Of a stretch of DNA of 64,000 bases, positions 10,779 to 36,736 are shown piece after piece (within the stretch, counting starts at the first letter, position 1; each line of letters starts with the position of its first letter). A model generated the notes under the pieces. That model was given only the letters and a program-made list of their open reading frames with translations, did no database searches and was not told the origin of the DNA. The position numbers and the translations under genes are program-made. This DNA comes from Candidatus Daviesbacteria bacterium (GTDB lineage: Bacteria > Patescibacteriota > Microgenomatia > Daviesbacterales > UBA10151): the NCBI GenBank assembly GCA_016187025.1, contig JACPKM010000004.1, positions 228,887 through 292,886 on the forward strand, read 5' to 3'.

Positions 10779-10779
10779 T

Positions 10780-12558: not shown

Positions 12559-12560
12559 TG

Positions 12561-12588: not shown

Positions 12589-12593
12589 AAGTT

Positions 12594-13631: not shown

Positions 13632-13635
13632 AATT

Positions 13636-14187: not shown

Positions 14188-14190
14188 TGT

Positions 14191-19818: not shown

Positions 19819-19955
19819 TACGGGGATATTTTACTATAGATTGGTTTGCTACGGGGTTACTAATAACTAAACAAGCTAGTAATTCGGGTTTTATTTGGTA
19901 TAAACTGGAGTAAGCAGTTGATGCTATAATTCGAGCAAAGCGAGAATCCTAAAAT

Positions 19956-20350: not shown

Positions 20351-20355
20351 GCCAT

Positions 20356-20379
20356 AAAAAACCCCCTATTGCTAGGGGG
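20356..20379 (-). terminator. Intrinsic terminator
   Basis: Minus strand CCCCCTA-GCAA-TAGGGGG followed by TTTTTT. Confidence 0.8.
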
Positions 20380-20445
20380 AGCAGCCTAGTCCTTCGATTT
20401 CTCTCAGAACAGCTCACCTGTACGATTAGTCTTCGGCTGAACTTT
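20356..20445 (-). ncRNA. Candidate ~90-nt structured RNA convergent on the DUF3800 gene
   Basis: Bounded by a near-consensus promoter and an intrinsic terminator; CAGCC/GGCTG closing stem, ACAG/CTGT hairpin; no credible ORF within. Confidence 0.6.
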
Positions 20446-20451
20446 AAATAA

Positions 20452-20480
20452 ATCCTACCACAAAACTTTATCTTTGTCAA
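20452..20480 (-). promoter_or_regulatory. Sigma70 promoter for the candidate ncRNA
   Basis: Minus strand TTGACA-17 nt-TAGGAT with extended -10 TG. Confidence 0.7.
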
Positions 20481-20498
20481 AAAAAACATTCTTTTGTG

Positions 20499-20720
20499 TT
20501 AAGCGAAGTTTAAATTTCTAATTGACCAAATTTCGCCCTGTAAGGTCACTTTTTCACCTACTTTAGCACCTAAAGCACTAGATACATTGGAAAAATCATC
20601 ATACCTAAAAGGAAAATGATAAATCAAATCCTCAATAGTGTTTAAACTAAAGAAGCTTAGTTTATAGGCAAGGAATGATCCGATACCTGAGATTTGAATT
20701 AGAGTAGTTTTGAGATCCAT
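20499..20720 (-). pseudogene. Truncated duplicate of the recG 5' end (contains repeat copy 2, 20515-20624)
   Basis: MDLKTTLIQISGIG...EDLIYHFPFRYDDFSNVSSAL.AKVGEKVTLQGEIWSIRN matches RecG N-terminus, then stops. Confidence 0.9.
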
Positions 20721-20756
20721 GAAGATGTATTTTACTACTATTATCTTAATAGACTA

Positions 20757-22688
20757 TCAGGTGTTCTTGACTTTTTTGAAGTCAAAAGCTAGTTTCTTAC
20801 CTTGAGTAATCTGAAAACCAGATACTTCCCATCCAGGAGTTTTTTCTGTGAGCTTTTCTTTAATAATTCTATTTAAATTGGCAACATAACCTTCTATCTC
20901 TCCCCTTTTTAATTCAGCAATTCCTAAGTTTCCTACATGATGATTTTTAACACTTACTCCTCCTGAAGAATCATTTACAAGTTCAACATCAAATGTCGTA
21001 TCTACATTTACAGTTCCAAAAAAGGTTTTTTTCTCTGCATGGACTCCAGCAGAAATAGCCAGTCCTCCTTCAGGCGTAAACTGGTATTGAGGATTTAAGA
21101 TGCGACCATTTGCTGGAAGTGGTAACGTTTTAACATAATCTACAAGTCTGTCAACTCCTGCAACAATTCTTTGTCTTTCAGATCTACTTCCTCTTAATGT
21201 TTCGTTTAATTGATCTATCAGAGATACTCCTGGTTTAGGAGTAATTTCTGTGGTATGTACTTGTGGAACAGCAGGTTTTTCGCTCTTAGTTGGTGGAAAA
21301 GATGGACCCTTGTTTTCTGATATTACAGGTTTTGGTTGTAGATTATTGCTTGGCCTCAATATTACTGCGGGAGATAAGGTTAGTCCGTAGTATCTAATTA
21401 TATCCTGAACGGATTTATATACAGCTCGACCAATACTTGGATCAACAATTTGCACTTCTAAGTTTCCATCACTTGTTCTTCTTACTCTACGTCCAGGTAA
21501 TATAAAGCCTATTCGTCCTGTTTCAACACCTCTTGGACCAATAGTACAGTCATTAATAGGTAAAATTGCTACTGCTCCTTCTTCAACGTTTTGAAGTATA
21601 TCTGCAAGGGAGTTTGTTTCTCTAAATCTTATCTCAGGTGCTTGTAAAGATAATGCGGAAAGTAACTCCTTTATACTTCCACCTCTTTGATGCTCCGTAG
21701 CATATCTACTACCTCCAAGTGCTGCGATCAAAGCACCTTCAGCATGTCTAGAGTGATTAAACCCTTCTCCTAGAAGATGTCTTATAGCATTTTCAGCTGA
21801 AGCAAACACAGAGCTGTCCATTCCAAAAGGATCTGCCTGCGTTCTAATATTTCGTACAGGTTGAGGTTCACGTAAATGCATTAATCTTGGATATCTTTGC
21901 CTGACATCCTTCTCAGCTTCGCGAAACCTCATGAGAGTTTTATCATCAAAATTAAATCCTCTTTCTCTTGCTTCATTCCCCATCCTTGCAAGTTCATTTT
22001 CTAGAACCCTATCAAGTACCCTCCCTGAGTTTGGTGATCCAGAAGGAGTTTTAGTGTCTTTTTTTCCTTCTTTTTGTAATATTCTGGCTTGTTTTAGATA
22101 TACCCACTGTGAACCATAAATTACTGTGGCTGCCTCATCTATTGACTTTGCATATTCTGACTTTACTTTTTCTCTATCTTGAGGTTTATTAGCCTGCTCA
22201 ATTGTCTTTAAAAATCTTTGTGACATTTTTTCAAATTCTAAAGCTGTAGGATAATCTCTTGCTACTCTGTATATATCTCTTGGTACCAGCTGATTTTCTT
22301 GAGTAATATCTCCTCTTCTGGTGGCAAATGAGACCACTCTTCTTAAATGTCTATGGTCTGCATCTTCTCCTTTGAATCTATCAAATACAGCCACTGGATT
22401 TTCTCTATCAGATTGAGCATCAACAGGAGTGGGAATAACAGCTAACAGTTGTCTTAAATCTTTATCACCTATACTACCTGATACCAGTCCTTGATGGTAC
22501 TTATCTTTCTCATCAGTAGTTACATCTACTTTATCCAAAAGTACCAATCTTGGATTTCCTCTGACAATTGAGGCTACTATTTTATTTTGACGTCTAATAT
22601 TAGGGATAGGTTCTTGTTGGGCAACCATTAATGAAGCTGATATTTCAGATGAGTGTTCTGTACTTGCCATAATTATGTATTTTAACAT
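20757..22688 (-). CDS. Modular protein: N-terminal shared domain X, degenerate C39-peptidase-like region, C-terminal beta-rich domain
   Basis: PNIRRQNKIVA...IYGSQWVYLKQARILQKEG shared with two neighbours; SSVFASAENA...GRIGFI...IVDPSIG resembles the C39 fold. Confidence 0.8.
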   Translation of the reverse strand: MLKYIIMASTEHSSEISASLMVAQQEPIPNIRRQNKIVASIVRGNPRLVLLDKVDVTTDEKDKYHQGLVSGSIGDKDLRQLLAVIPTPVDAQSDRENPVAVFDRFKGEDADHRHLRRVVSFATRRGDITQENQLVPRDIYRVARDYPTALEFEKMSQRFLKTIEQANKPQDREKVKSEYAKSIDEAATVIYGSQWVYLKQARILQKEGKKDTKTPSGSPNSGRVLDRVLENELARMGNEARERGFNFDDKTLMRFREAEKDVRQRYPRLMHLREPQPVRNIRTQADPFGMDSSVFASAENAIRHLLGEGFNHSRHAEGALIAALGGSRYATEHQRGGSIKELLSALSLQAPEIRFRETNSLADILQNVEEGAVAILPINDCTIGPRGVETGRIGFILPGRRVRRTSDGNLEVQIVDPSIGRAVYKSVQDIIRYYGLTLSPAVILRPSNNLQPKPVISENKGPSFPPTKSEKPAVPQVHTTEITPKPGVSLIDQLNETLRGSRSERQRIVAGVDRLVDYVKTLPLPANGRILNPQYQFTPEGGLAISAGVHAEKKTFFGTVNVDTTFDVELVNDSSGGVSVKNHHVGNLGIAELKRGEIEGYVANLNRIIKEKLTEKTPGWEVSGFQITQGKKLAFDFKKVKNT

Positions 22689-22779
22689 AAATTATAGGAT
22701 AGATCTATCTAGTTAAGAACAAAACCTAACCAATATCAAACCTATAACACTTGACAAAAGGGCATTCATATTCAAGCTC

Positions 22780-24234
22780 CTACTGAATTGAAGAGGTGAC
22801 TGTAGTAGATGGTTCGCCCCTACCCAGTAATTTGTTTTTGACTAATTTTCTAATGGATTGCCAATATTTGTTTACTCTATCAGAAGTATAAGGATCTCCT
22901 CCATCTGGAATGAGCATATGTTGAGGTAGAAATCCGTTTTGAGCTTCATCTCGAATACTTTCTACCTGCATCCCTCTTACATGCTGGAAATTTACAATAT
23001 TATGTGCTCTGTTTACACCTCCGTCCCCCCAATAAGGGTCATGTATGATTATTTCTTTTTGAGGATCTGCTTCTGGTATTGTTGTATCGACATTACTTCT
23101 ATTAAGAAGTAGCTCTTTGGCAAGCCCTAAACCTGAAAGGCCAATAGTGAACAGATTTCCTAAATTTCCCATACCTACAGATAAAAGATTTCTATCAAAA
23201 TCCGGTTGCATCATTCCTTGATCAATTTCTGTTTGCATAAGGTCATAGAGTTCTTTTACAAAAAAGTAATTCTCCTTCACCTTTGATTGAAGCTTTTTTA
23301 ACAAAGCCTTAACCAGGACATTTTTACGATAACTTCTTTCGTCCTGTTTACCATCGGGGTTTTCATCCTCCGCCAGAATAAACCTCATTGCTGTTAAAGT
23401 ATCCATCTGCTGAGGACCGGCTTTAATAAGTTTTGGACCATATTCTTGACCACCTAGTTTAAAGGGTCCAGTTAGGTGATCTTTTTGCACCTGCACATCT
23501 AAAGGACCAACTTTATCCAAGAGATCTCTGATTACTGTATCTTTTATAACCATCTGGTAATCTATTGCCAAACCTGTGGCTTCTTCCACAACTTCTCGAA
23601 CTTGATCAAACTTTCCTTCACGATAAACATGACGCATATACATAGTTTGCACTCTTCCATCACTTTGTCTTTTTTCTAAATTCGGTGTTCTTATATCGCG
23701 GCTTAAAGATACTGACCTGATTTTTCCAGTTTTCAAATCATAAGAGATGACTGTAGGTGATCCACCATAGTTTGCATAACTTTCTCCATGCTCTTCCCAA
23801 TATACCCATAAAACTGCATTAACTGTGTTGTCGCTAAGTTCCTTATCAACCCTTTTACTATATTCCGGATCGTTTCTTTCTCTTTCTGCTCTTTTGCGGT
23901 ATGCCTGTTCAACAAAAGGTTTTAGGAGTTCATTAGTAAGTTTTACTTCTTTAACTGGTGGTTTAGTTGGTTCAGCAGTAGCGGTTGGAGGTAGTGGGGG
24001 TTGATCTCCTTTTGAAGGTATATTTGTAGGGGGAAAATGCTGATTTGATTCTACTCGAGGAGTTCGCAATAATCCTGGAACTAGTAAAGAGGCGAAACCC
24101 GCAGCGACAGCAGCACCACCACCCAATAAAAATCTTCTCCTGGAAGCATCCGGAGGGATAGCTCCAGATTCACCGAGTCTTATGAAATTAACTTTTCCTC
24201 CTAAAATTGGATCTATTTCAGATATTGGTTCCAT
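22780..24234 (-). CDS. LytR-CpsA-Psr (LCP) family protein, divergent, with twin-arginine-like anchor
   Basis: SRRRFLLGG plus TM, Pro-rich linker, SVSLSRDI, EEATGLAIDY, LLDKVGPLDV, D.RSYRK. Confidence 0.8.
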   Translation of the reverse strand: MEPISEIDPILGGKVNFIRLGESGAIPPDASRRRFLLGGGAAVAAGFASLLVPGLLRTPRVESNQHFPPTNIPSKGDQPPLPPTATAEPTKPPVKEVKLTNELLKPFVEQAYRKRAERERNDPEYSKRVDKELSDNTVNAVLWVYWEEHGESYANYGGSPTVISYDLKTGKIRSVSLSRDIRTPNLEKRQSDGRVQTMYMRHVYREGKFDQVREVVEEATGLAIDYQMVIKDTVIRDLLDKVGPLDVQVQKDHLTGPFKLGGQEYGPKLIKAGPQQMDTLTAMRFILAEDENPDGKQDERSYRKNVLVKALLKKLQSKVKENYFFVKELYDLMQTEIDQGMMQPDFDRNLLSVGMGNLGNLFTIGLSGLGLAKELLLNRSNVDTTIPEADPQKEIIIHDPYWGDGGVNRAHNIVNFQHVRGMQVESIRDEAQNGFLPQHMLIPDGGDPYTSDRVNKYWQSIRKLVKNKLLGRGEPSTTVTSSIQ

Positions 24235-24236
24235 AA

Positions 24237-25565
24237 TTATCTTAATTTAGGTAATCTTATACCTAAGAATTTAGATCTTGCCGGTTTTGGCGATAAATCT
24301 AAAAGAATCTTTGCGCAGTAGCTTAAAGCTAATAATTTACCATTTATCTCAGGTGTTGGAGCATAGCCCCTCCTACCTACATTTTGTGTATATTCATAGA
24401 TATCTTTATAAACTTCTCTGTCAGCAAAAGGCTTGGTCCTGGGATGCTGCATCCTGGAATTAATATGGTTAACAATTAAGTTTGCAAGACTCGCCTTTTG
24501 GCTTATTGTAAGAGTAGTATCTCTAAGAAAGGTTGAAGACAAATGTTGATAGACTCTACGAACCAGATCTGATGATAAATTAGTTAAATTTCTGGCAACA
24601 TTGGGCCAATCTGAGGCCAGGCCTTGAAAAATAAAGGTTAACTCTGGATTGGAAAGAGCTGTAAAATTTCTTCTATTTTCTTCTGTGTCGAAAAATAATG
24701 GCCTGGAAAAATAAAGTCCTAATTTTACCCGAAGCAATGAACGTTGTTCTGGTGTTAGACTCATAGTTTGAGTTGTGTGATCCACAAGCGATTCAATCAT
24801 GGAAGCTACAGTTGTAGCTTCTGCAGGTTGAAGGTCGGGAACCGGGTTTATATTTACTATGTCTGCTTCAGCGGGTTTTAAGACTATCTCGACATCTGGT
24901 GCTGCAACAACTTTTACCTTGGCTGCTTCAGTGTCTTTCCTTCCTTCTTTTTGTAATATTCTAGCTTGTTTGAGATAAGTCCATTGGCCGGCATAAATAG
25001 CTTGTCCGATAGTATCAAGTGTACCGATATACTCTAGCCTAACTTTTTCTCTATCTTCTGGCCTGTTTGCTTCTGAAACAGCTTTTAGTACTTGTGGAAT
25101 TACTTGTTCAAAATCTAAAGCAGTAGGTAGTTTTTCAGTTACGGCATAAAGATCTGATGCTTTGATTTGGTCTTGTGGAGTGATGCTTCCTCTGGTAATA
25201 AAGGCTACCGCTCTTCTCATGTGTCGTTGTTGGAAACCATCTCCCTCAAATCTTGCAAACAAATGTACTGGATTTCTACTATCTGGTGCAGCTTGAACAG
25301 CTGTCGGTAATATGGATACAGCTTTTTTAAAGTCTATTGCAGCTATAGTTCCTTCTCTAATACCTTTGGCAAAGTTTGCTCTTTCATAATCGCTTATTGG
25401 TACTACATCAGGTAATAGTAAACGGGGATTGCCGCGCAATACAGCTGCAATTATTTTATCTTGTCTTCTTGGATTAGGCTCTAGTCTTTCAGGGGGTAAT
25501 AAAGTTATTGAAGAGCTATCAGTTCCTAAAGGATTAGATGAATTACTTTCTGCTGCCTCTGCCAT
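24237..25565 (-). CDS. Modular protein: N-terminal shared domain X plus unknown helical C-terminal domain
   Basis: PNPRRQDKIIAAVLRGNPRL...IYAGQWTYLKQARILQKEG. Confidence 0.85.
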   Translation of the reverse strand: MAEAAESNSSNPLGTDSSSITLLPPERLEPNPRRQDKIIAAVLRGNPRLLLPDVVPISDYERANFAKGIREGTIAAIDFKKAVSILPTAVQAAPDSRNPVHLFARFEGDGFQQRHMRRAVAFITRGSITPQDQIKASDLYAVTEKLPTALDFEQVIPQVLKAVSEANRPEDREKVRLEYIGTLDTIGQAIYAGQWTYLKQARILQKEGRKDTEAAKVKVVAAPDVEIVLKPAEADIVNINPVPDLQPAEATTVASMIESLVDHTTQTMSLTPEQRSLLRVKLGLYFSRPLFFDTEENRRNFTALSNPELTFIFQGLASDWPNVARNLTNLSSDLVRRVYQHLSSTFLRDTTLTISQKASLANLIVNHINSRMQHPRTKPFADREVYKDIYEYTQNVGRRGYAPTPEINGKLLALSYCAKILLDLSPKPARSKFLGIRLPKLR

Positions 25566-25734
25566 ACTTTAATATTATTATCTGGAGAGTGAAAAATACA
25601 ACAATTATCTTTTCAAAGCTCGTATATTAAGTATAATTGCTCTTGTTACTAGATCAGGTTTCTGATTGGTACCCTCAGTAGCTTTTTGAGTGTGTCTTCC
25701 TTGCTTTTTCATTCTCCACTCAGGATAGTGTTGA

Positions 25735-27741
25735 TTATTTTCCTTGTCGCATTTGTTGCTCTAATATTCTGGCTTGTTTGAGATAGACCCATTGTGAGCC
25801 ATAAATTGTCATACCAACCTTATCTAAAACACTAACATACTCTAATCTAATCCTCTCTCTATCTTCTCGTTTATTTGCTTGCTCAACTGCAAGTAATAGC
25901 GTTGGTATTGTTTGCTCAAAATTAAGGGCAGTTGGAAACCGTTTTGCAAAAAAAGCAAGATCTGCAGCGGTTATTTGATCATGAGAGGTAAGATTACCTT
26001 TTGTCACATAAGAAACAATTCTACGCATCCTCCGAGCATCATCCGTAGCTTCCTTAAATTTAGCGAACAGACTTACTGGGCTTTCTGGATCTTTTTCATA
26101 TGCTAAAGAAGTTCGAATAACTTTAATCATATTTAAATACTGTGTTGATCCAATAACACCATCACGAACTCCCTTTTGGAAGAGTGCTCGCTCTGCTTCT
26201 GAAACGACAACTTTATCAACCAACACAAGACGATGATCTCCCCTTACAATCGCTGCAATTATTTTATCTTGTCTTCTTGGATCCGGAGAAGTATTTAGCT
26301 CAACTTGTGATTGTTCAGATGGCTTTTGTCTTACTTGGGATTCCCCTGTTTTGGTAGAGGATGGTAATTGGGGGCCTTGATTCCATGAGTCCATATAAAC
26401 GGTTGCCATATTAGTTTCGCCCCTTTTTATTGACTCTTGCATTCTTCTAGATCTTTCTATAAATCTGCTCATGTCTGTAATTACTATCCGGCTTCCGTGG
26501 ATATCTTTAGGGTCTCCTATGATTGTATATTGAATACCAACCATTTCTAGGTGAGTTCTATAAAACCAAGAATTCTTGCCCAAATGTTCTCCTTCCTCGT
26601 AGCCATTAATCACTTTATTTAATATTTGAGTTATTTCCGCTTTAAGTTGCTCTACCTTTGCTGGATTAGAATAATCAAACATGGGGAACTGATTTACATC
26701 TAAAGCCCTCATCTTAGCTTCTGCAGATGTATCACCAAATGGAATCTGTCTTCCTTGGCCTTCTAAATAGCTGCTTAATCCCCGCCTATTATTTGTGATT
26801 AATACTGTTCCATCACCGGCATATCCGAGTGTTCCTTTTGCTTTTCTTAGTGATCGTATTGTTTTCCCAGTCCATTCTTGTTCTCCTGTTTTTAGCGCAG
26901 AAGGGTAACCTCCAATCGCAGAGTAAATCGATGACTTCATTACAGAGTTTGCCCCAAATAAGTTTACATTTCCATTAATAAAACCACGTTTATCAAGCAG
27001 ATTGACAAATTCTGTTTTAGCATGAACAGCTGGAAATCTGGTAAAGGATTGAGGATCAAATAAAAGGTTTCCAACAGCACCTTCTTTATCAGGATGTTCT
27101 CTAAAATATTTTAAATATTCTTCTAGGTATTGTGGATTTAAGCCCTCACAATCAGCATCGTTACTCAGTAGTAATATATCCTTATAAACTCCCGCATTTT
27201 CTGTTCTTATTAGTGCAAGATCAGTTTGAATTTTTCTAATATTCCCAATCTTTACCTGCTCGTCTGGTAAGGTTGCTGCCACTAAGCGAATATTTAACCT
27301 AGGGAAAGTTTTTCCAGCACGTTTCACTTCTACAACAGTGGCTTTGTATGCGTCTTTTTTACTCTGCATTTGGGATTCAGGAGCGTTCACAAAAACGATT
27401 AACTCAAATTTTTTTGAGTCTAGTGTTTGTTCAGAGTAAAGTTTTAATGTCTTAAATATATTCCTTGCTTCTTGTATACCAGCAACCGGTATACAAACTA
27501 CGGCTTCTGTTTCAGGACGCATGCTTTTACCAATTTGACTATCTAGTCTTTTCAGTTGTGCTAAGTATTTTGGATCCTGTCTTTGTAGGTAACTTCTTCT
27601 TTCTGTGACCGGGTCTAATTTAGCATTTGGATTTTGTAATAATGTCGGAGAGGCAGCTACTCGATCAACTAAACTTACTTGTCTTAAGGTAAATGGGTTA
27701 TCAGGTGTGGATATGATATCTGCTGTTGGATCTTGGTCCAT
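25735..27741 (-). CDS. GT2-like glycosyltransferase with C-terminal shared domain X
   Basis: VVCIPVAG, FELIVFVN, IGNIRK, LSNDAD (DxD), GANS...YSAIGGY; C-terminus PDPRRQDKIIAA...IYGSQWVYLKQARIL. Confidence 0.85.
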   Translation of the reverse strand: MDQDPTADIISTPDNPFTLRQVSLVDRVAASPTLLQNPNAKLDPVTERRSYLQRQDPKYLAQLKRLDSQIGKSMRPETEAVVCIPVAGIQEARNIFKTLKLYSEQTLDSKKFELIVFVNAPESQMQSKKDAYKATVVEVKRAGKTFPRLNIRLVAATLPDEQVKIGNIRKIQTDLALIRTENAGVYKDILLLSNDADCEGLNPQYLEEYLKYFREHPDKEGAVGNLLFDPQSFTRFPAVHAKTEFVNLLDKRGFINGNVNLFGANSVMKSSIYSAIGGYPSALKTGEQEWTGKTIRSLRKAKGTLGYAGDGTVLITNNRRGLSSYLEGQGRQIPFGDTSAEAKMRALDVNQFPMFDYSNPAKVEQLKAEITQILNKVINGYEEGEHLGKNSWFYRTHLEMVGIQYTIIGDPKDIHGSRIVITDMSRFIERSRRMQESIKRGETNMATVYMDSWNQGPQLPSSTKTGESQVRQKPSEQSQVELNTSPDPRRQDKIIAAIVRGDHRLVLVDKVVVSEAERALFQKGVRDGVIGSTQYLNMIKVIRTSLAYEKDPESPVSLFAKFKEATDDARRMRRIVSYVTKGNLTSHDQITAADLAFFAKRFPTALNFEQTIPTLLLAVEQANKREDRERIRLEYVSVLDKVGMTIYGSQWVYLKQARILEQQMRQGK

Positions 27742-27779
27742 ATTTAAATAATTACTTGATTAGTTTGAGCTTGCATTGT

Positions 27780-30700
27780 CTATTTGAGTTGATTATAGGC
27801 GTTAGATAAATCTATTAACATTTGATCAGTAGTTTGGTATCTATTTCTTGGTTCTGGATCAAGCCCCTTAATAAATATTCTTTTAATACTATCAGGTATG
27901 TTTGCTGGAATTTCAAATCTTCCATTCGTATGGGCTTCATATTCTCTTTCTAGTAATCTTTGCGTTGATTCACCTTTAAATCTTGGAACATTAAATGGGA
28001 AATTACCAGTCATTAACTTATATAGCAATACTGTTAATTCATAGGTATCGCAGCTTAAAGTAACATTAGGGTTTTCTCTAAAAAGTTCTGGAGGTCTAAT
28101 ATGTCTATTTCCTCCTACAAACCCTCTCCTAAATTTCCCCCCGGTACCTTTAATGCTACCTGCATCAAAGTCGATTATTTTTATACCTTGCTCGCCCAGT
28201 AGGATATTAGAAAGTGCAATATCAAGATGTACAATACCTGCATTATGAAGCTCTCTTATAGTTTCTGCAATTTTTATAGTAGTAGCAATTGCTTGCTGGG
28301 GTGGTAAAGACCTATTTGTCGCAAAGTAATGCTCTAAATCAGTATTTTGAAGTGGATAAATTTTAATGATTTCGTCACCGTTATCAATTTCATCTATAAA
28401 AGTACCAAATGTAGGGCTTGTTGTTTGTGCCTTGATTATTGTTTCTAGATCTTTTACTCCATCTGGATAACGATTTGCTTTTGCAATGTATTCTCTTTCA
28501 CTCTTTTTTACCCTTTTAAACGACAAAATCTGTCCAGTTGTTTTATTGTATCCTGCAACAATTTGTCCCATTTGACCTGATCCTAAAGGTTTATCTAAAC
28601 AAACCACATAATCACCAAATTCTTGAATTTGCGTGCTCTCCTTTAGCTTTTCTAGATCATACTTTGGAGCAGTTGTTGTAGGTATAACTACTGGGTTTTC
28701 CTTATTAAACTGATCCAAAGCGTTATCCGCTTCTGCTTTTTCTGCTAACTCACGTTCTTTTCTTGTGATATCCAAGTTTTCTAGTTCTTTTTGGAATTCA
28801 TCCTCAAGTCTGGTAAGCTCAGCCAAAGTTTCTGGAGTTCCTTTACCTGCTTTTATATCTCTGAGTAATACTCCAATCTTTTGATAGTGTTTTAATCCTC
28901 TAACTAAAACATCCATATTTATTATAACCACATTACCATTTACTACTTTGTACTGGATTCCCGACCATCGTAGTGCACGTTGGTAATATTCAGAGTCCTT
29001 GCCAAGTCTTTCGCCATGTTCGTAAATATCAAGTGTTTTATTAATAACTGTCTCCAATCCTTCTTTGAATTTAGCAAGTTGAGCGGGATCATCGTAATTA
29101 ATATTTTCTCCTTCCCCAAGTTGCATTCTTCTGATTTCATCATCGAAGGCACTGAATTCTTTTTGCCATTGATCTAAAGGAACAATTCCATCCTTGATTG
29201 CGGCTATGGCTCGTCTGGCTGATGTGTATAGCCTGGATACTCTTGTTCCCGCGAAGGTAACTCTTTTATGGTCCTGTCGACCTTCAATAATTCCCCAGCC
29301 AATCGCAATATCTTCCCCGCCTTCAGAACCTGGTAAATAACCACCAATAGCAGCATAAATACTTCCACGAAACGCAAAGTTTGCTCCACTTGAAGGCATT
29401 CGCCCGCTGCGGTGGCGACCAATTACGGCTAAATTCTGAAACAAACGCGTACCAATATGTAATAGTGGATATTTAATATAAGCTTCCGGATCCCAATCGA
29501 GTTGACCCAGCATTCCATCTACTTGCGGGTTTTGTTCAAACTTCTGAATGAAGTTACTTAAATATGTTGGAGCAATACCTTTGTTATCTGCATCGTTACT
29601 TATTAAGATTATATCTTCTGCTTTAGGACCTCTCTGATATTGCCTAAAAAGTGCAATATCATTTAAATACTTTCTGATAGTGCCAATGTTTGCCTGCTTT
29701 ATAGGGAGCGCTTTAACTACCACTCTAATAGGCACATCAGGATGATCTTTTCTAAATCGTTCTATTTCTGATAAGGTGTTATCGGGTTTGACTGGTTCTC
29801 CTTGTTTATCAGTTTGTGGGTAATTTACAAAAAGCAAGATCTCATATTGGTCCTTAGAAGCATCCTGAGGTAGATAATTTGCCAAAGAGTTATAAATATT
29901 TCCTCCTTCTTGATGTCCTGCTACCGGAATACAAACTATAGCCTTTAAGTTCACCGAAGGTTCTTCTTTAATCTGTCCTGTTAACTGTTTTATTTCTTGA
30001 TAATATGCTGGATTCTGCTTTTCAAAATACATCTGTGCTTCTTGGTATGAATTTAGTTTTGCATTGGGGTTTTGCTTTAATGTTTTAGATCTATTTTTTG
30101 CTAAGATTTTCAAAATTTCCTCTCTTGGCCTGCCTCCATAAAGAGAGCCAGGAGGTATAAGTCTTTCTTCAAATGGTAGAGGGTGATATGGGGCAAAAGG
30201 GGTTGCCCAGAGCTTATCTGCAGGTATTTCTGCTGGTAAAGGTGGGATATATTTAATTGCTTCAGGCGGGGTAAGCTTAAACCCTTCGTGAGGCGGTCTG
30301 GGCTCAGGAATAGGAATTGCCTCCCCCGGAATAGTAGTTGGAATCTTTTGAACTTCCCCCGGACCAACTGTTGTTGAAAGTATAGTTCTTACCATGGATC
30401 CATCCGGCCTTTTTTCAACATGCGCAACCTCAATAAATTCTACATTCTGAAAGTTTCCCCATTTGTTCCTAATGGGATTTCCATTTTGATCCAGATTAAA
30501 TAAAGCTTTTGTTAAAGGAGAGTTAGCATCTAAATTAAGTTTTCCCTGCATAAGCTCCGGATGGGTTTGGGCATTAATTACCACTACTTGTCTTGCCTCA
30601 TCAGCTGCATGATCAGGAGTAATTAAAATCTCAAAATTTCGATAACCATTTTGAGAAATATCTTTTGCAAGCCTGCCGTATTGTGAATCAATGGAAAAAT

Positions 30701-33700
30701 CCCAGTTTACCCCTCTTTTTCCATCAGGCAGAAGCTGTGATCTCATCTGGGAAAAGTCCAGCTCAACTTGTCCATCTTTTACCCTGTGATGAAATTGCAG
30801 TTCTTTGCCGTCTATTCCAATTATATTGCCAGTATCCTTACTGCCTGCTGGTCTGCCGTCAGCAAATCTTCTTATGGTGTCGTTATCATGCCAAAGATCA
30901 CGTCTGGCCCGGTCTACCTCCCCAATTTCTTTATGTTCTCTTATAAAACCAAAAAAATCTTTATCAACAATCTTATCGGGACTTTTCTCATATCTTATTC
31001 CAGGAGGTGTTTCAAATTGCTTAGACTCAATTGCCCATCCTTCTGTTTTGAGCCTGGATTGGACACTGTCCCAGTTAACATTTGCATTAGCCGGATCCTG
31101 CGGGTCAAAAGACAAAGCTCCTTCCTGGTCAAAATGGCCCACAATCCAAGCATTATCAGGGCTTTTTATATCAGGGTTACCCAGAAAAATAGAAACAGAG
31201 CCACGGTCTTTGTTCAAATCCACAATTGAGCTTCCGTGGATAAAAGTTAAGTCCTGCTCCGGTGAGCTGGCAAAATTCTTAATCTTTTGATGAATATTAA
31301 AATCAGGGTTATCATAGATTTCTCTTGTCCATCCTGTATCAGTTACTAAATTTTTAATTTTTGGATCAAGGCTGGCTTCAGCTCCTGAAATAACCAGTGA
31401 GCCTTCTGAGGTAACCCTCACCGGAGGACCGGCAATTGTCTGCCCGGTAGCCCTGTCTATAAAATGTGCATTGTGCCCATTATCCGCTCCATAGTTTGTT
31501 GCTAAAGTCAGATCATTGTTAAGGTCGTAATTTTTAGGATTATCAAAAGTTTGTTTGAAAGTATCCCTTGCTAATCCAGGTGCTCTTGTAGGTGTCCACC
31601 TGGTTTCAAAAAAGCCCCTTCCATCCATCATGTTTTGAACACCCCTGACAGCCAGTCCTCCTGCAAATCCTAAGGTAGATGCAAAAATTGTTGCTCCAGC
31701 TGCCTGGCGGACTCTGTAGTTTCTTGCTGCTCCATTTTTTGCTCTTTTGTCATCACTGATTTCCTGGTCAACAACATCAAATTGCTCTGACAGTAAAGTA
31801 TTAAGTTGTGCCGCATCTGTAATCTGGGACCTTAACTTTTGCTCAAGCCTTGCTGCAGCATCAACCAACTGAGCAACTTCCTGATCTGCTAAAACATAAT
31901 TTTTACCGTAAGTTATATACTCACTTTTTTCTCTTCTTCCTCTAATAAGTCTTACTCTAATTTCCTGCATTCTTCTTGCTACTTCTTGCTGGTTGGTCGT
32001 GTTGGATAAATCCAATGTGAGTAATTGATCAACTCCCGCTTGGAGATGATTTTGACCTCCGCCATCAAGCAGTTGCTTTGCAGAAAAGGTTTGGTAGCGG
32101 GATCTTTCCATATCCCGCCTTCTTTCTGTACCACGCAGTCTTCCCCATAGCCCTCCATTTGCCTGCATATCAGGTACTGTTCCACCTAAAGCAACCTCTG
32201 CTGCATGCATTTTTTGCTGATGTGCGACCTCTCCTAGTCTTCTTAACCCTACAACTCCTCCTCCTGCAACCGCACCAAGAATTAATCCTCCTAATGGTCC
32301 TGCTAAAGCTGTGCCTCCAACTACAGCGCCTATCCTCACCCCGCCATTTGCAGCTTTTAGCAGCCCATCTGCCCCCAGCGAAACCGCTGCTCCCACAAAC
32401 AGAGGGTTTAGAATTGTTCCTGCCAGCAGACTGTCGCCGCCCTTTACTAAACTTTCAGCCCGTCTTCTTCTTGCCCAGGCAACAGTTTTATCTGTGGCTG
32501 TGAGGTTTTCGGTATTACCGGCAAATCTTGCATTTGCAAGCCTTATGGTGACATAAGCATCAATTTGGTCAGCTCCTTCCTGGTGTTTTGCCAGATTATC
32601 TTTGAGCTTTAGCCCCATTTCCAAAAGATCTGTTGCAAAATAATCAGCAATCTGCCCAAAACTTTCAGCTTGATTACCAAATAGTTGCCTGATTAAAGGA
32701 TTATCCATATTGTTTTGGACAAACTGAGTTAACTGCCTTCTAACATCTTCTTTTCTTTGTCTAATTTCAGCTTCATTTTGAGGAACATTACCAGTAACAA
32801 TAGGGGTAAGGATGTCTTTAATAATTTTGCCTCTTAAGTCATTTTGTTCAGGAGTGTTTTTATCTAGTGTAATAATTTGCTCTCCATTTAGAGTTTGATT
32901 TGCTTTTAATCTGCCCAACACTGCTTGCTGTTGCGCATCGGTACTGTGTCTTAGATCATTTAGTCTTTGTGCAGCTTCTTGAGAGAGGCCTCTCACTGGA
33001 GAGCCATCAAAAAATGATTTTCTCATCTTTTCGTACATTAGATTAACCGCTCCACCTCTGCCGAGTCTTACTCCTATCATTGAGGGAATTCTCCAAATAT
33101 CCCTCCAGCCTTTAAACTTCAAAAACTTTTCTACCTCTTTTTGTGCGTCCAGGTGCAAAACTTTTTCAATAACGTCTGTATTTCTGGTAATATTTATTTC
33201 AACCTCTCTTTGTTCTGGCTGAGAAGATGGAGATGGTTCTACTCCTGGTCTTCCTGGGGTGTCAACAGGTGCAGGAGCTGCAGCAGGTGCGCCGCCTGGA
33301 GCAGAAGCTGCAGGAGCTGGGGAGGGGGCAGCAGGCTGTTTGACAGGTTGCAGAGTATCTGGATCAACCAGCTCCCTTCTTGCCTCCAATGCAGGCTTGG
33401 CAACCTCAAGCCAGTCTTTATCTGGTTCTCCTCTTTTTCTGGAATCCTGATATGCAAAATACGCCTCTTGTTGTAAACGGGCTTTAAATTGTGGACTTGA
33501 TTCATCGTGAGCATCAGGATGCACCTCTTTATAAGCCTTACTGCTTGCTTTTAAAACTTTAATTGCATTTTGAATTTTCTTCCTCTCATTTTTATTAGTT
33601 GTAAAAAGAGCTTCCTCGTTTAACAGTTCAAGAAGCCCGTCAATCGGAACACCCTCACTTTGGCTGAAAGCTTGCCCTGTTTGGGGATCTGTAAAGTTGT

Positions 33701-34010
33701 TTGTAAAACTAAACCCGCCCTTTGCGATATCAGCTTTATTTTTAGGATCAGGTTGATTGCTGCTATCCGGGTGGGGTGCAAAAGCGCCTTGGATAGCTTC
33801 ATAAGCATGTCTTGCCTTGTTTATCTTACCTGTTTGATTGGGGTCTGCAAGCAAACTTGGGTTATTTAAAAGCCCCTCAATTTTTGTTAGTCCAAAACGT
33901 AGAGCATTTTTGACTTGTTGCCGGCTAGGAATTTCCGGGGTGTTAATTTTACCAGGATGACTTTCTATATCTTGAACTGAGACAGGGTTTTCTGTTGGTT
34001 GGCCGTTCAT
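27780..34010 (-). CDS. 2076-aa multidomain protein: Gly-rich hydrophobic core, GT2-like glycosyltransferase, C-terminal Ser/Thr protein kinase
   Basis: GAVVGGTALAGPLGGLILGAVAGGG segments; IVCIPVAG, ISNDAD, SGANFAFRGSIYAAIGGY; kinase LGSGQMG, LSFKRV, IVHLDIALSNILL, IIDFD, RPPE, CDTYEL. Confidence 0.9.
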   Translation of the reverse strand: MNGQPTENPVSVQDIESHPGKINTPEIPSRQQVKNALRFGLTKIEGLLNNPSLLADPNQTGKINKARHAYEAIQGAFAPHPDSSNQPDPKNKADIAKGGFSFTNNFTDPQTGQAFSQSEGVPIDGLLELLNEEALFTTNKNERKKIQNAIKVLKASSKAYKEVHPDAHDESSPQFKARLQQEAYFAYQDSRKRGEPDKDWLEVAKPALEARRELVDPDTLQPVKQPAAPSPAPAASAPGGAPAAAPAPVDTPGRPGVEPSPSSQPEQREVEINITRNTDVIEKVLHLDAQKEVEKFLKFKGWRDIWRIPSMIGVRLGRGGAVNLMYEKMRKSFFDGSPVRGLSQEAAQRLNDLRHSTDAQQQAVLGRLKANQTLNGEQIITLDKNTPEQNDLRGKIIKDILTPIVTGNVPQNEAEIRQRKEDVRRQLTQFVQNNMDNPLIRQLFGNQAESFGQIADYFATDLLEMGLKLKDNLAKHQEGADQIDAYVTIRLANARFAGNTENLTATDKTVAWARRRRAESLVKGGDSLLAGTILNPLFVGAAVSLGADGLLKAANGGVRIGAVVGGTALAGPLGGLILGAVAGGGVVGLRRLGEVAHQQKMHAAEVALGGTVPDMQANGGLWGRLRGTERRRDMERSRYQTFSAKQLLDGGGQNHLQAGVDQLLTLDLSNTTNQQEVARRMQEIRVRLIRGRREKSEYITYGKNYVLADQEVAQLVDAAARLEQKLRSQITDAAQLNTLLSEQFDVVDQEISDDKRAKNGAARNYRVRQAAGATIFASTLGFAGGLAVRGVQNMMDGRGFFETRWTPTRAPGLARDTFKQTFDNPKNYDLNNDLTLATNYGADNGHNAHFIDRATGQTIAGPPVRVTSEGSLVISGAEASLDPKIKNLVTDTGWTREIYDNPDFNIHQKIKNFASSPEQDLTFIHGSSIVDLNKDRGSVSIFLGNPDIKSPDNAWIVGHFDQEGALSFDPQDPANANVNWDSVQSRLKTEGWAIESKQFETPPGIRYEKSPDKIVDKDFFGFIREHKEIGEVDRARRDLWHDNDTIRRFADGRPAGSKDTGNIIGIDGKELQFHHRVKDGQVELDFSQMRSQLLPDGKRGVNWDFSIDSQYGRLAKDISQNGYRNFEILITPDHAADEARQVVVINAQTHPELMQGKLNLDANSPLTKALFNLDQNGNPIRNKWGNFQNVEFIEVAHVEKRPDGSMVRTILSTTVGPGEVQKIPTTIPGEAIPIPEPRPPHEGFKLTPPEAIKYIPPLPAEIPADKLWATPFAPYHPLPFEERLIPPGSLYGGRPREEILKILAKNRSKTLKQNPNAKLNSYQEAQMYFEKQNPAYYQEIKQLTGQIKEEPSVNLKAIVCIPVAGHQEGGNIYNSLANYLPQDASKDQYEILLFVNYPQTDKQGEPVKPDNTLSEIERFRKDHPDVPIRVVVKALPIKQANIGTIRKYLNDIALFRQYQRGPKAEDIILISNDADNKGIAPTYLSNFIQKFEQNPQVDGMLGQLDWDPEAYIKYPLLHIGTRLFQNLAVIGRHRSGRMPSSGANFAFRGSIYAAIGGYLPGSEGGEDIAIGWGIIEGRQDHKRVTFAGTRVSRLYTSARRAIAAIKDGIVPLDQWQKEFSAFDDEIRRMQLGEGENINYDDPAQLAKFKEGLETVINKTLDIYEHGERLGKDSEYYQRALRWSGIQYKVVNGNVVIINMDVLVRGLKHYQKIGVLLRDIKAGKGTPETLAELTRLEDEFQKELENLDITRKERELAEKAEADNALDQFNKENPVVIPTTTAPKYDLEKLKESTQIQEFGDYVVCLDKPLGSGQMGQIVAGYNKTTGQILSFKRVKKSEREYIAKANRYPDGVKDLETIIKAQTTSPTFGTFIDEIDNGDEIIKIYPLQNTDLEHYFATNRSLPPQQAIATTIKIAETIRELHNAGIVHLDIALSNILLGEQGIKIIDFDAGSIKGTGGKFRRGFVGGNRHIRPPELFRENPNVTLSCDTYELTVLLYKLMTGNFPFNVPRFKGESTQRLLEREYEAHTNGRFEIPANIPDSIKRIFIKGLDPEPRNRYQTTDQMLIDLSNAYNQLK

Positions 34011-34012
34011 TA

Positions 34013-34351
34013 CTAGTTTGTAACTGGTGTAGAAATAACTGTATTCCCAAGATATAAATCCCTAAAATCCAACATAGCTTTGGCAAACACATCCTCTGAG
34101 TTGGGAATTTTTTCTTTTAAGAATTGTTGAATTTCTTGTTGTGGCCTTTTTTGGTCCACCATTTGGCTGAATTGGTCTAAATGTTCAGGGGGCAAATTAT
34201 CCAAAATAGTTGTAGACAGGAAATTATCAAGTCTGACATATAAATCATCGATTAGCTGCTTGTGCATATTCCCGTCTGCAGCAGTGATACCTGCCTCTGT
34301 TAATAGATTGTCTAAATAGCCCCTAACTTCTGGTGGAATTTGGTTATCCAA
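34013..34351 (-). CDS. Small acidic helical protein, DUF5663-like (CPR)
   Basis: Strong SD AAGGAGGTGA before TTG; L..RLD.FL...ILDNLP..HLD.F...EIQQFL.EKIPN; stop 2 nt before giant gene start. Confidence 0.75.
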   Translation of the reverse strand: MDNQIPPEVRGYLDNLLTEAGITAADGNMHKQLIDDLYVRLDNFLSTTILDNLPPEHLDQFSQMVDQKRPQQEIQQFLKEKIPNSEDVFAKAMLDFRDLYLGNTVISTPVTN

Positions 34352-34443
34352 AAAACTTCACCTCCTTATTCATACTTAATTCCAGTATTTCACTAATAAT
34401 AATATGTTGTCAACAGGAAACCCGCTATTTATACTTAAAACAC

Positions 34444-35139
34444 ATGTTATTTGTTTTTGTGTTTTTACTTGAGTTGTTTTTGTTGTATTTCTTATCTAAA
34501 AATTTGATAAAAGAGTTATCCGTAATTCTTCTAAAAATAAGCAAGTATAACCATTCATTTACTGTTAATATTTTGGCTGTAGTTTTTTTGCCTGGGACAA
34601 TAATGCATGAGCTTGCTCATCTTTTAATAGCCGGAGTTTTGATGGTCCCTGTTGGCGAGTTAGAAGTGATCCCTGAGATAACAGATAAAGGAGTCAAACT
34701 GGGAAGTGTCCAAGTTGGCCAAACAGACCCTTTTAGAAGAATTTTAATAGGAGTTGCTCCGGTTTTAGTAGGGATTGCCACCATTACCTTTATAATTTTT
34801 TTCAACCTTGATACTTTAAAAAATTTATCTTCCTGGTTGATTATCTCTTCGGTTGTTTATGGACTCTTTGAGGTTTCTAACACTATGTTTTCCAGTAAAA
34901 AAGATATAGAGGGGGCTTTAGTGTTTCTTGGTGCTTTGGTAGTTGTTGGAGTAATACTGTTTGGGGCATTTTTATTCACAGGACAATCAATTCCTAACAG
35001 TTGGCTAAAACTTGTTGATTTTTCCTCTGTTTATATCTTTTTTAAAATGGTTAGTTTATATATGCTCCTGCCTTTGATAATTGATTTGTGCTTTTTTGCA
35101 GTTTTTAAACTGGTTAACCTAGCCTTAAATCGAGGTTAA
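34444..35139 (+). CDS. Membrane protein with HExxH motif (M50-like metallopeptidase)
   Basis: FLPGTIMHELAH, LGSVQ...DPFRRILIGVAP, NTMFSSKKD; several TMs; ATG 34444. Confidence 0.75.
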   Translation: MLFVFVFLLELFLLYFLSKNLIKELSVILLKISKYNHSFTVNILAVVFLPGTIMHELAHLLIAGVLMVPVGELEVIPEITDKGVKLGSVQVGQTDPFRRILIGVAPVLVGIATITFIIFFNLDTLKNLSSWLIISSVVYGLFEVSNTMFSSKKDIEGALVFLGALVVVGVILFGAFLFTGQSIPNSWLKLVDFSSVYIFFKMVSLYMLLPLIIDLCFFAVFKLVNLALNRG

Positions 35140-35229
35140 AAGTGGCAGTAGTGAAAACAGCAGGATTGATATCCCTGCAATTACTGACAAAACAATCCAA
35201 AAAATTCTAAACTTTTTTGAATACATCAT
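35125..35229 (-). CDS. Small single-TM protein (34 aa), below ORF-track cutoff
   Basis: MMYSKKFRIFWIVLSVIAGISILLFSLLPLLTSI*: basic N-terminus plus one hydrophobic helix. Confidence 0.5.
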   Translation of the reverse strand: MMYSKKFRIFWIVLSVIAGISILLFSLLPLLTSI

Positions 35230-35336
35230 ACTTTTATATTCCGGGCATAGAGAGTATTTCAAGCTCTGCTTATATTATAATATTTGCTTTTTAAAAAGAA
35301 AAGATATATAAATTAATTTTAGAAGGAAGTCAAAAG

Positions 35337-35636
35337 ATGAGTACTATAGAAGCAGATGCACCAATTGCGTACAGGCCAGAAAGCCTGTTTTCAACTATGC
35401 CTGTTGATACTTATAGAGGTGCCAGGAGATTTTGGCGGACCGTAATAGATTGGACCGTAGTAGGTGCAGGAGCCTTTCTTGGGTCTGCTTTAGCCATGCA
35501 TACAGGATTAGTAGATCCTGGACTTGTGCTTCATGAAGCTGTGTTATATCAAGGTGCAATTGGCGGTGGGGTAATGGTGGGTTTTGTTACAGCTTCACTT
35601 CAAGCCAATCCAATGGAGATGATAGCAAGGTCCTAG
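35337..35636 (+). CDS. Hypothetical membrane protein
   Basis: 99-aa ORF, two hydrophobic stretches, SD-like AAGGAAG. Confidence 0.6.
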   Translation: MSTIEADAPIAYRPESLFSTMPVDTYRGARRFWRTVIDWTVVGAGAFLGSALAMHTGLVDPGLVLHEAVLYQGAIGGGVMVGFVTASLQANPMEMIARS

Positions 35637-36736
35637 ATTTTTGCTGTAAGGAGTTCTATTTCCTCTAAGGCAGATTTTTTGACAGGGTCTTCAAAATATT
35701 TTCTTGCAGGTTCTAATTTTTCGATTAGCCACTCTGCCACAGCCACCTTCAGATCCTGGGGGTGGAGTTTTTTTTCTGCATAGTCTTTTTCTAAATCCTT
35801 ATAAGAGGTGTAAGTTAAATTCCCTCCCCACTTTTCAGGGCGTTTAATTGTTAGGCTGGAATTTTCATAGTAAAAAATTAAATGTTTTGTCCAGTCTAAG
35901 ATAGGGTTAAATTCCACTTCCCCTTCCGGTGCATAAGCATTATTAACCTTTCTTTTGATCTCTTCTGGTGAGTCCGTAATAAAAACAGCAGTATCCGGTT
36001 TGGATTTGCTCATTTTGGTTGCTTCCAAATCCAAAACTTTTTTTCCAGTTTCATCGGTGGTGAAAGTTGGTGTTAAAAGCCCTTGTAAAAGGTGATGATG
36101 TATGGCAACAGGTTTTTTCTCCCCTAAGCTTGGTGCTGCCTCCCTTGCCACAACATGAACGTTTCTTTGGTCAGTTCCGGCATGAGCAATATTGATCCCT
36201 AAAGCAAATATATCAGCAGACTGCATGGCTGGATAAATTAACATGGCAGTGTCGGATATTTCAGATTCTTTTCTGCCCATAATAGTGGTGGATCTAATCA
36301 TCCTGGAAACGGTGGTAGCTTTGGCTACTTTAATTACCAAAGCCCAATATTTTGAACCCATTTTTTCGTAAAACTCACTCCCTAAAATAAAGTTGATTTT
36401 GCCCGGATCTGCACCGGCGACAGTTGCACATGCCCTTAATGCTTGCTCAAAATAATCGCGCCCTAGCCTTTTGGCAGTCTCCAGTGTGCCATCTAGTTTT
36501 TTATTCAACCAGGTATGCCAATCAGCTAACAGGACATTTGTTTCCACCTCCGCATCTTGCAAGTCTTTGAATTTCATCATCATAAAGACCCACCCTACAT
36601 GTGCCTTCCCAGAAATTTCTAAGCCGATGTAATGTTTTAAAGGTGTGCCTGAATCTATTAAGGCTTTTAGTTCTTCTGAAGTTAGAACCTCTTCTAAATT
36701 TCTTGTAATTAAATTGTATTTTTCCTCTGATGTCAT
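35633..36736 (-). CDS. tyrS: Tyrosine--tRNA ligase, archaeal/eukaryal type
   Basis: YIGLEISGKAHVG, LLADWH, YPAMQSADI, GTDQR, KMSKS, KKLHPQDLK; 367 aa with no S4 domain. Confidence 0.93.
   Translation of the reverse strand: MTSEEKYNLITRNLEEVLTSEELKALIDSGTPLKHYIGLEISGKAHVGWVFMMMKFKDLQDAEVETNVLLADWHTWLNKKLDGTLETAKRLGRDYFEQALRACATVAGADPGKINFILGSEFYEKMGSKYWALVIKVAKATTVSRMIRSTTIMGRKESEISDTAMLIYPAMQSADIFALGINIAHAGTDQRNVHVVAREAAPSLGEKKPVAIHHHLLQGLLTPTFTTDETGKKVLDLEATKMSKSKPDTAVFITDSPEEIKRKVNNAYAPEGEVEFNPILDWTKHLIFYYENSSLTIKRPEKWGGNLTYTSYKDLEKDYAEKKLHPQDLKVAVAEWLIEKLEPARKYFEDPVKKSALEEIELLTAKI

Follow-up and report, generated by a model that had tools for sequence, protein, structure and literature searches.

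A candidate effector-like protein family of Patescibacteria with a conserved carrier and exchangeable enzymatic cargo

What role might be played by a single protein of 2076 amino acids (aa) that joins Gly-rich hydrophobic helices to a glycosyltransferase (GT) and a protein kinase, in a Candidatus Daviesbacteria bacterium with a genome of 1.03 Mb (10 contigs)? The gene is found on the minus strand at 27780-34010 of a 64,000-nucleotide stretch (assembly GCA_016187025.1, contig JACPKM010000004.1, positions 228,887 to 292,886), which is referred to here as the window. What the initial annotation, made from the sequence alone, had missed is that this protein represents one allele of a polymorphic family which spans the phylum and is accompanied by a partner gene, DUF5663. 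This carrier-cargo family of Patescibacteria is real, is apparently undescribed, and appears to work like a polymorphic effector. The initial annotation had proposed a membrane-inserting dual-enzyme effector; its effector-like logic stands (marginal helices, swappable cargo, conserved catalytic residues), while the tyrosine-kinase specificity and the analogy to large glycosylating toxins do not.

A single gene with many parts

As the initial annotation had stated, the 2076 aa are encoded by one uninterrupted minus-strand open reading frame (ORF). The fusion is not an assembly artefact, because carrier, GT and kinase recur in one protein at 15 of the 41 loci recovered from GTDB. The protein lacks a signal peptide, as had been noted; its N-terminus is not hydrophobic, and no Kyte-Doolittle 19-mer exceeds 1.2 before the one that starts at residue 528. 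The linker, hydrophobic segments, hinge, GT2-like domain and kinase motifs of the earlier description are all present, at the positions given below. Scans of the whole protein against Pfam and NCBIfam (E<=0.1) recovered kinase families only.

34013-34351, minus strand: DUF5663 (PF18908), 112 aa, predicted chaperone or adaptor; 2 bp upstream of the large gene; Pfam E 1.7e-11
27780-34010, minus strand: carrier-cargo protein, 2076 aa
33336-34010, minus strand: N-terminal domain, residues 1-225, an optional slot; missing in some relatives, PP2C in three
33225-33335, minus strand: Ala/Pro linker, residues 226-262, 32% Pro
32430-33224, minus strand: first part of the conserved helical core, residues 263-527; known fold not found
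32241-32429, minus strand: Gly-rich hydrophobic hairpin, residues 528-590, then a conserved RR
31704-32240, minus strand: conserved helical segment, residues 591-769, with a basic stretch at its end; start of a helix of about 60 residues in the model
31626-31703, minus strand: third Gly-rich hydrophobic segment, residues 770-795
30321-31625, minus strand: variable-length beta-rich region, residues 796-1230; predicted extracellular stalk
30111-30320, minus strand: Pro-rich hinge, residues 1231-1300, 26% Pro
30162-30227, minus strand: degenerate copy of the junction motif, inside the hinge; end of the carrier
28866-30110, minus strand: GT2-like glycosyltransferase, cargo slot 1, residues 1301-1715; conserved DAD, GxN, GED and RR, with NDAD at residue 1472 (nucleotide 29597)
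28641-28865, minus strand: long charged helix linking GT and kinase
27783-28640, minus strand: Hanks-fold protein kinase with a Lys-less catalytic loop; LGSGQMG at 1809, Lys1832, HLDIALSN at 1928, DFD at 1947, PPE at 1973

A carrier that ends at a fixed junction

How far does the conserved part of the protein extend? The carrier comprises residues ~263-1283; sequence similarity among relatives holds to about residue 1280 and then ends or gives way to different domains. Family proteins measure 1,200-2,900 aa and have two or three marginal helices and a fixed junction. Homologues of carrier residues 255-837 are present in 7 of 95 other genomes of the same taxonomic family, and a profile of seven carriers matches 34 of 401 genomes of the class, distributed over ten families and nearly always as one large ORF. 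In a library of 1.84 billion proteins clustered at 50% identity, the carrier profile finds 1073 clusters at E<=0.001 and 252 at E<=1e-30; the library analyses reported here cover the best 150 of the 1073 matches. Within one family the core is patchy, occurring in 12 of 96 genomes.

A second route to the family was a scan of GTDB that started from the GT. It used a GT alignment reduced to two short motifs and therefore catches only close GTs. It yielded 41 loci, labelled Levy-, Moran-, Pacei-, Sacchari-, Uhr-, Nomura-, Buchanan-, Berkel- and Gribaldobacteria; several records are labelled Gammaproteobacteria, a label that is doubted. At 38 of these loci carrier and GT form one protein, and at five a kinase gene without carrier adjoins. 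The three exceptions to the GT-carrier fusion are L113, where the GT is attached to another Gly/Ala-rich carrier, and the archaeal-labelled L114 and L115.

The carrier terminates in a junction of the PPIIPIPFAPRHPLE type (family consensus; 62 seed matches). The degenerate copy in the Daviesbacteria protein reaches a position-specific score of 15.3, against a maximum of -1.2 for shuffled sequence. The GTDB carriers form an independent set, retrieved by way of their GT; 32 of these 38 show a junction-like pattern ahead of the GT, compared with 12 of 220 control windows. At L011:3309-10323, L018, L122 and L128 the carrier gene is split into two ORFs that overlap or adjoin, which may reflect a frameshift, phase variation or an assembly error.

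The structure of the carrier was predicted for residues 255-1290 (pLDDT 78, pTM 0.53). The model has a helical core and several beta-rich domains, and a 60-residue helix runs into the third hydrophobic segment; in this soluble model the hydrophobic segments have low pLDDT. The last domain of the beta-rich region weakly resembles Ig/FnIII sandwiches (Z about 5). No significant match was found for the multi-domain model as a whole (1036 residues) by Foldseek (best E 0.04 in PDB and 0.006 in BFVD) or VIA (best Z 5.8), and an ESM Atlas query returned nothing useful (0.75). These failed matches do not make the carrier fold new.

Exchange of cargo behind the junction

What lies beyond the junction? 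A set of 140 tails with a recognisable junction was assembled from the 150 matches and the locus proteins. Slot 1 holds a GT2-like domain in 57 tails and a GT9-like domain in 26, and never both; 29 further tails are long and have neither, and 28 are short. Kinase, PP2C, C39-like, FkbM or unnamed domains make up the further cargo. Pfam was run on 73 of the 150 matches, chosen mainly for their unexplained tails, and identified GT9 in 22, PP2C in 14, kinase in three, FkbM and DUF218 in two each and ATP-grasp in one.

Exchange is seen over short distances: carriers that are 73-76% identical bear GT2 in one case and GT9 in the other, and three species of one genus have three different cargoes, namely GT9 (L011), an unnamed domain (L012) and C39 with a phosphoesterase (L016). 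Over 1431 pairs, the identities of carriers and of their GTs are uncorrelated (Spearman 0.04). The unnamed domain at L012:8668-9300, of about 200 aa, recurs at 42-58% identity in P0010, P0026, P0044, P0072, P0080 and L068 and has no Pfam or PDB match; a HopA1- or lyase-like identity was considered and found no support.

The genes directly downstream of the carrier gene in the window are of the same kind.

25735-27741, minus strand: stand-alone 668-aa paralogue of the GT cargo (34% identity) with a 180-aa private domain
24237-25565, minus strand: 442-aa protein with the private 180-aa domain
22780-24234, minus strand: LCP (LytR-CpsA-Psr) protein; in L011 and L057, too, the carrier is followed by an LCP gene
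20757-22688, minus strand: 643-aa protein with the private domain, a C39-like domain and a domain of ~150 aa

The GT paralogue, LCP, C39-like and 150-aa modules of these four genes are seen fused to, or beside, other carriers. Among the 140 tails the C39-like domain is fused C-terminal cargo in five and the ~150-aa domain in 25; for the latter, a resemblance to TULIP/LmeA proteins was considered but not supported. Cargo-module genes like the 668- and 643-aa genes of the window, again complete ORFs, are found at L053, L091, L094, L101, L112 and L116. The private domain occurs at 25738-26295, 24921-25490 and 22044-22613 (minus strand); its copies are 43-49% identical and terminate in QWxYLKQARIL. 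No relative was found in 400 other genomes of the class, and a protein search, itself weak, was also empty.

Polymorphic toxin systems such as CdiA with its VENN motif, Rhs with DPxG and the LXG/Esx proteins are the obvious comparison. Like these, the family has a conserved N-terminal trafficking region whose C-terminal domains are swapped at a junction motif, cassettes of alternative modules downstream (here whole ORFs and not fragments) and a small dedicated partner gene. In contrast to polymorphic toxins, no immunity gene is consistently present: 23 of 56 carrier genes have no same-strand ORF of at least 80 aa within 250 bp downstream, recG follows directly in five, and an ORF of less than 200 aa follows in only seven. 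By their N-termini, these seven small ORFs (ORFs of at least 80 aa were covered) do not resemble a single family. The carrier-cargo family also differs in its cargo, which consists of glycosyltransferases, kinases and phosphatases and often combines several in tandem, in the variability of its N-terminal slot, and in its carrier, which shows no sequence kinship with theirs and gave no fold match. It is not classed as a polymorphic toxin system, since an immunity gene is not consistently present. A Rhs toxin with an immunity gene, described in the accessible part of PMC6031116, belongs to a different system.

The two enzymes of the Daviesbacteria protein

Which GT family does the cargo belong to? 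The domain of this protein has no Pfam match, and a PDB sequence search with the single GT was empty. In ESM Atlas features it is GT2-like (0.96, 177/256 shared), the ten best named matches being of the same family or clan. GT relatives give weak PF00535 matches, and the GT profile matches PDB 6yv7 (E 0.008). The residues expected of a GT2 enzyme recur in an alignment of 61 sequences: D1473 in 54, D1475 in 58, D1567 in 57, R1599 in 55 and R1600 in 58. Judged by its sequence, the domain is a divergent GT2-like subfamily below Pfam thresholds, which shares the GT-A motifs DAD, GED and RR with the GT2 family, where 6yv7 is the nearest PDB profile match. The combined AlphaFold2 model of GT and kinase has a pLDDT of 90.3; fold searches were run on this model, and kinase matches filled both lists.

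The same GT subfamily (45% identity) is found in the archaeal-labelled proteins L114:7309-11022 and L115:3-4085, multi-pass membrane proteins in which it follows Pro/Tyr-rich hinges. This suggests, from sequence, that the GT was exchanged between candidate phyla radiation (CPR) bacteria and DPANN-like archaea.

The kinase is recognised by Pfam (Pkinase, residues 1807-2061, E 1.4e-25). Among 25 family kinases the motifs read HxD[ILV][SA]PxN, D[LF]D and [AP]PE; none of these kinases lacks the catalytic Asp, the Asn or the Mg-binding Asp, and 24 have the beta3 Lys. The Lys of the canonical catalytic loop (HRDLKPxN) occurs in only one, the divergent canonical kinase of L108. D+3 is Pro in 19 of the 25, as in Ser/Thr kinases, and the Gly of DFG is replaced by Asp in 19.

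The initial annotation had taken the Ala in the catalytic loop as a hint of tyrosine specificity. Tyrosine kinases are defined by a catalytic-loop Arg at D+2 or D+4 (HRDLAARN or HRDLRAAN), and neither position has this Arg in any of the 25. D+2 is Ser in ten, Ala in another ten and other residues in five, and the closest folds are Ser/Thr kinases such as AMPK, CAMKK1 and PknB (VIA Z 26.2 for AMPK and 25.5 for PknB), so the hint does not hold. Hanks Ser/Thr kinases such as PknB and StkP are alike in fold (Z about 25-26, rmsd 2.3-2.6 A) and in the invariant Asp, Asn and Mg-binding Asp; the family kinase differs from them in lacking the catalytic-loop Lys and the RD Arg and in having D[LF]D in place of DFG. 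By its residues it is a Lys-less enzyme of Ser/Thr kinase fold with an intact catalytic core, and it is probably active and atypical. The initial annotation had named inactive domains as an outcome that would overturn its reading; the conserved catalytic residues of both GT and kinase speak otherwise.

DUF5663 as the predicted partner

Is the small upstream gene a regular companion of the carrier? DUF5663 adjoins the carrier gene at 24 of 28 loci of the class, and three of the four misses have no upstream DNA. It lies immediately upstream at 27 of the 30 GTDB loci with room for it; two of the three misses are carriers in two pieces, and in the third DUF5663 is downstream. In genomes of the same family, a strong DUF5663 match has an adjacent carrier match in 13 of 14 cases. 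Six genomes have a carrier match without a strong one to DUF5663, and there the match is confined to the optional N-terminal domain. Seven of the genomes counted had contributed to the profiles, and related genomes do not count as independent cases. The domain occurs in 82 of 401 genomes of the phylum. Among 20 loci of other classes, a carrier follows DUF5663 in three genomes (L080 twice, L083 and L084), and three of these four carrier genes have the same GT.

The models of DUF5663 resemble the C-terminal domain of trigger factor (TM 0.87; Table S2 of PMC10633639). In Southlakia epibionticum, Table S1 of the same paper calls the DUF5663 gene SEML1_0162 essential together with its neighbour SEML1_0161, a hypothetical protein of 767 aa; SEML1_0163 is listed with a growth defect and SEML1_0221 as non-essential. 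A predicted complex of DUF5663 with carrier residues ~264-814 (median 0.13) is not used as evidence. No paper was found that deals with DUF5663 in its main text.

A small acidic gene upstream of a Gly-rich protein with marginal helices is also the arrangement of type VI secretion effectors with Eag/DUF1795 chaperones and of type III secretion translocators. The differences are that DUF5663 is another family and a partner by prediction only, and that PAAR and type III components are absent.

A related arrangement was observed in the infB-DUF5663-fmt region of L069-L081, which are Saccharibacteria-like by gene order. Many of these loci hold a variable protein of 500-650 aa with Gly-rich hydrophobic segments between infB and DUF5663, and that of L069 has a weak match to the carrier (E 0.00045). 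In S. epibionticum the gene in this position is essential. For other neighbours of DUF5663, LysM-like C-terminal domains were considered but not supported.

At the six loci with intact ends, the gene stands behind tyrS, an HExxH membrane gene and DUF5663, and in five of them recG comes directly next or after one LCP gene. The HExxH membrane protein of the window (34333-35139, plus strand, divergent from DUF5663) is weakly M50B-like; the match, seen in one homologue, has an E of only 0.016. The protein was considered as a specific processing protease and rejected, as the gene occurs in 48 of 96 genomes of the family, most of which have no carrier.

Is the cargo delivered into a host?

Where do these enzymes act? 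Hydrophobicity was scored on a biological scale. The best segment of 171 family proteins has a median score of +3.0 and in none falls below +1, whereas five membrane proteins encoded in the window range from -2.5 to +2.0. No hydrophobic segment lies outside the core in 168 of the 171. Lys and Arg are commoner before than after the last hydrophobic segment in 105 of 129 proteins, a bias that would put the stalk and the cargo on the outer side of the producer's membrane, where little ATP or nucleotide-diphosphate (NDP) sugar is available. With their C-terminal half outside, enzymes that depend on ATP, S-adenosylmethionine (SAM) or NDP-sugars could work only after reaching another cytoplasm.

The reading to which we give an even chance is that the protein belongs to a polymorphic family by which Patescibacteria deliver nucleotide-dependent enzymes into the host cytoplasm, each step of delivery being one that we infer. 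We consider it the best reading because of the polymorphic cargo, the marginal helices, the small upstream partner, the host-dependent lineages and the outward topology. DUF5663 would keep the marginally hydrophobic Gly-rich helices soluble. Export could proceed without a signal peptide, either with the last hydrophobic helix as signal-anchor or through a type IV system of the PrgI/VirB4 type, homologues of which are encoded in the genome according to profile searches. Where the two cells touch, the helices, probably assembled into an oligomer, might then enter a membrane; the beta-rich stalk would reach across the wall, and passage or cleavage would take place at the junction. Inside the host, the GT would take NDP-sugar and the kinase ATP, leading to remodelled envelope glycans and phospho-signalling; the outcome would be manipulation of the host and not the killing of competitors.

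The type IV secretion system of Patescibacteria has no known substrates in the available text of PMC11665869 and PMC12102498. At L054:5692-15647, a carrier gene was observed immediately upstream of PrgI-like and VirB4-like genes. Hosts of Saccharibacteria sense their epibionts via a Ser/Thr kinase-phosphatase-FHA pathway (available part of PMC13622651), which is a plausible target of the cargo. Distinctly more doubtful is the fullest version of delivery, in which a DUF5663-chaperoned carrier of new fold would bridge the membranes of epibiont and host and inject immunity-free GTs, Lys-less kinases and phosphatases that rewire envelope synthesis and threat signalling in the host.

Several observations weigh against delivery. 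No pore or translocon fold was matched by the carrier in the PDB, VIA and BFVD searches. The best segment of the Daviesbacteria protein scores +2.1, close to the +2.0 of the real anchor of the neighbouring LCP protein, so the separation of marginal helices is a tendency and not a clean line; the anchors of L114 and L115 score +1.0 and +1.3 on the same scale. In most of the 20 loci of other classes DUF5663 has no carrier (one weak match, the others none) and is therefore not exclusive to it. Some genera keep their cargo: L058, L060 and L067 all have the GT and the same further domain. Rates of exchange are inflated, since among close carriers the clusters at 50% identity retain only those that differ elsewhere; the individual cases stand nevertheless. 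No nuclease-like toxin cargo was recognised, the default cargo being a GT of the lipid/glycan type and not a known toxin domain.

Might the enzymes instead stay in the cell that makes them? A carrier in the producer's own membrane could tether GT, kinase and phosphatase as a scaffold or sensor in its cytoplasm, where they would modify its own glycolipids and proteins, perhaps switched on by host contact via the variable beta region. Every recognised cargo needs cytoplasmic nucleotides, as this arrangement would provide, and no immunity gene would be required. PP2C occupies the C-terminal slot and, in P0115, P0125 and P0142, also a position N-terminal of the core, an arrangement most simply explained by both ends facing one cytoplasm. 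GT and kinase genes that stand alone have neither carrier nor anchor, nor an export signal. In L114 and L115 an ordinary hydrophobic anchor is followed by a basic stretch, so that the GT faces the producer's cytoplasm. Such a scaffold explains PP2C at both ends, the stand-alone cargo and the archaeal forms better than delivery does. It is hard to reconcile with two or three hydrophobic segments that all lie in the core and are too weak for typical co-translational anchors, and with basic residues that precede the last of them, which would leave the short proline-rich junction as the only way for cargo to re-enter. The swapping of unrelated GT-A and GT-B folds, the patchiness within one family and the restriction of the GT subfamily to host-dependent lineages fit conflict better than housekeeping. 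On balance, we regard a scaffold in the producer's own membrane as possible but unlikely.

An enzyme-bearing stalk or adhesin anchored at the surface, with its cargo outside or at the interface and acting on the host envelope or, by self-glycosylation, on the stalk itself, is improbable. It is in keeping with the N-in/C-out charge bias, with a beta-sandwich-like stalk of variable length and with LCP, C39-like and DUF218 domains in the repertoire, which are typically envelope enzymes. Against it, kinases, PP2C, FkbM, ATP-grasp, GT2 and GT9 depend on ATP, SAM or NDP-sugars, compounds not normally to be had outside, and their catalytic residues are conserved.

Kinship with the large clostridial glycosylating toxins, which the initial annotation had drawn on as an analogy, or with phage tape-measure or ejection proteins is very improbable: large size, Gly-rich helices beside an enzyme and Tc toxin A subunits and tail proteins among the weakest Foldseek rows (E>=0.006, query TM-score <=0.09) stand against the lack of any TcdA/B or tape-measure family in Pfam or PHROGs, of a significant structural match in PDB or BFVD and of a relative of the GT query in viral contigs, and against a gene between tyrS and recG whose chromosomal position is conserved in close relatives. 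The GT is GT2-like and C-terminal, and no N-terminal GT44, InsP6-activated cysteine protease or TcdA/B pore was found by Pfam at E<=0.1. MARTX and TcdA/B resemble the family as large single chains with marginally hydrophobic helices and enzyme cargo, which in MARTX is a variable set of effectors; unlike them, the family has no cysteine-protease autoprocessing domain and no RTX or CROP repeats, has GT2 or GT9 in place of GT44, bears its cargo C-terminally and is produced by a prokaryotic epibiont. A tape-measure-like protein, another outcome that the initial annotation had named as contradicting it, is largely refuted by the empty PHROG and Pfam searches and by the tyrS-DUF5663-carrier-recG synteny.

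Other features of the window

34384-34413, minus strand: sigma70-like promoter match upstream of DUF5663 (10/12, extended -10); matches across the whole region are no more frequent than chance
20499-20720, minus strand: truncated 5' copy of recG, 73 codons, matching the real start in 163 of 210 bases and about 680 bp upstream of recG
20480: promoter-like site between the recG copy and recG
20379-20362: strong terminator-like hairpin, likewise between the two
19608-19818, minus strand: real recG start
5142-14886, plus strand: type IV pilus cluster with prepilin peptidase, five pilins, PilX and PilM; 6 kb from the cargo cluster
1205-4480, plus strand: 1091-aa CARDB/PA14 surface protein

The truncated recG copy may be a recombination scar at the edge of the cargo cluster. 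An Rfam scan of 19700-35700 gave no match.

Meaning for the biology of Patescibacteria

No description of the carrier family was found in the literature that could be searched, which excludes subscription journals and bioRxiv supplements, and it is undescribed in the accessible text of PMC12592800, PMC7159879, PMC10633639, PMC13622651, PMC11665869, PMC12102498, PMC6031116, PMC12419801 and 10.1101/2023.11.21.568195. The giant proteins of Omnitrophota are also multi-enzyme membrane proteins of ultra-small predators, with C39, methylase and polysaccharide enzymes, but according to the available parts of 10.1101/2023.11.21.568195 and PMC12419801 they differ in their size of 10,000-85,000 aa, many transmembrane helices and SecA-like domains.

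For the way in which Patescibacteria exploit their hosts, the family offers a concrete candidate: it has more than 1000 diverged members, its junction and partner gene are defined, its enzymes can be assayed, and among its bearers are Saccharibacteria, where genetics exist. Should the enzymes prove to act in the producer's own membrane, this would still be an undescribed modular signalling or glycosylation protein with a Lys-less kinase subfamily. If the fullest version of delivery described above is true, it would be the first phylum-wide effector family of the CPR, with a GT cargo shared with DPANN archaea.

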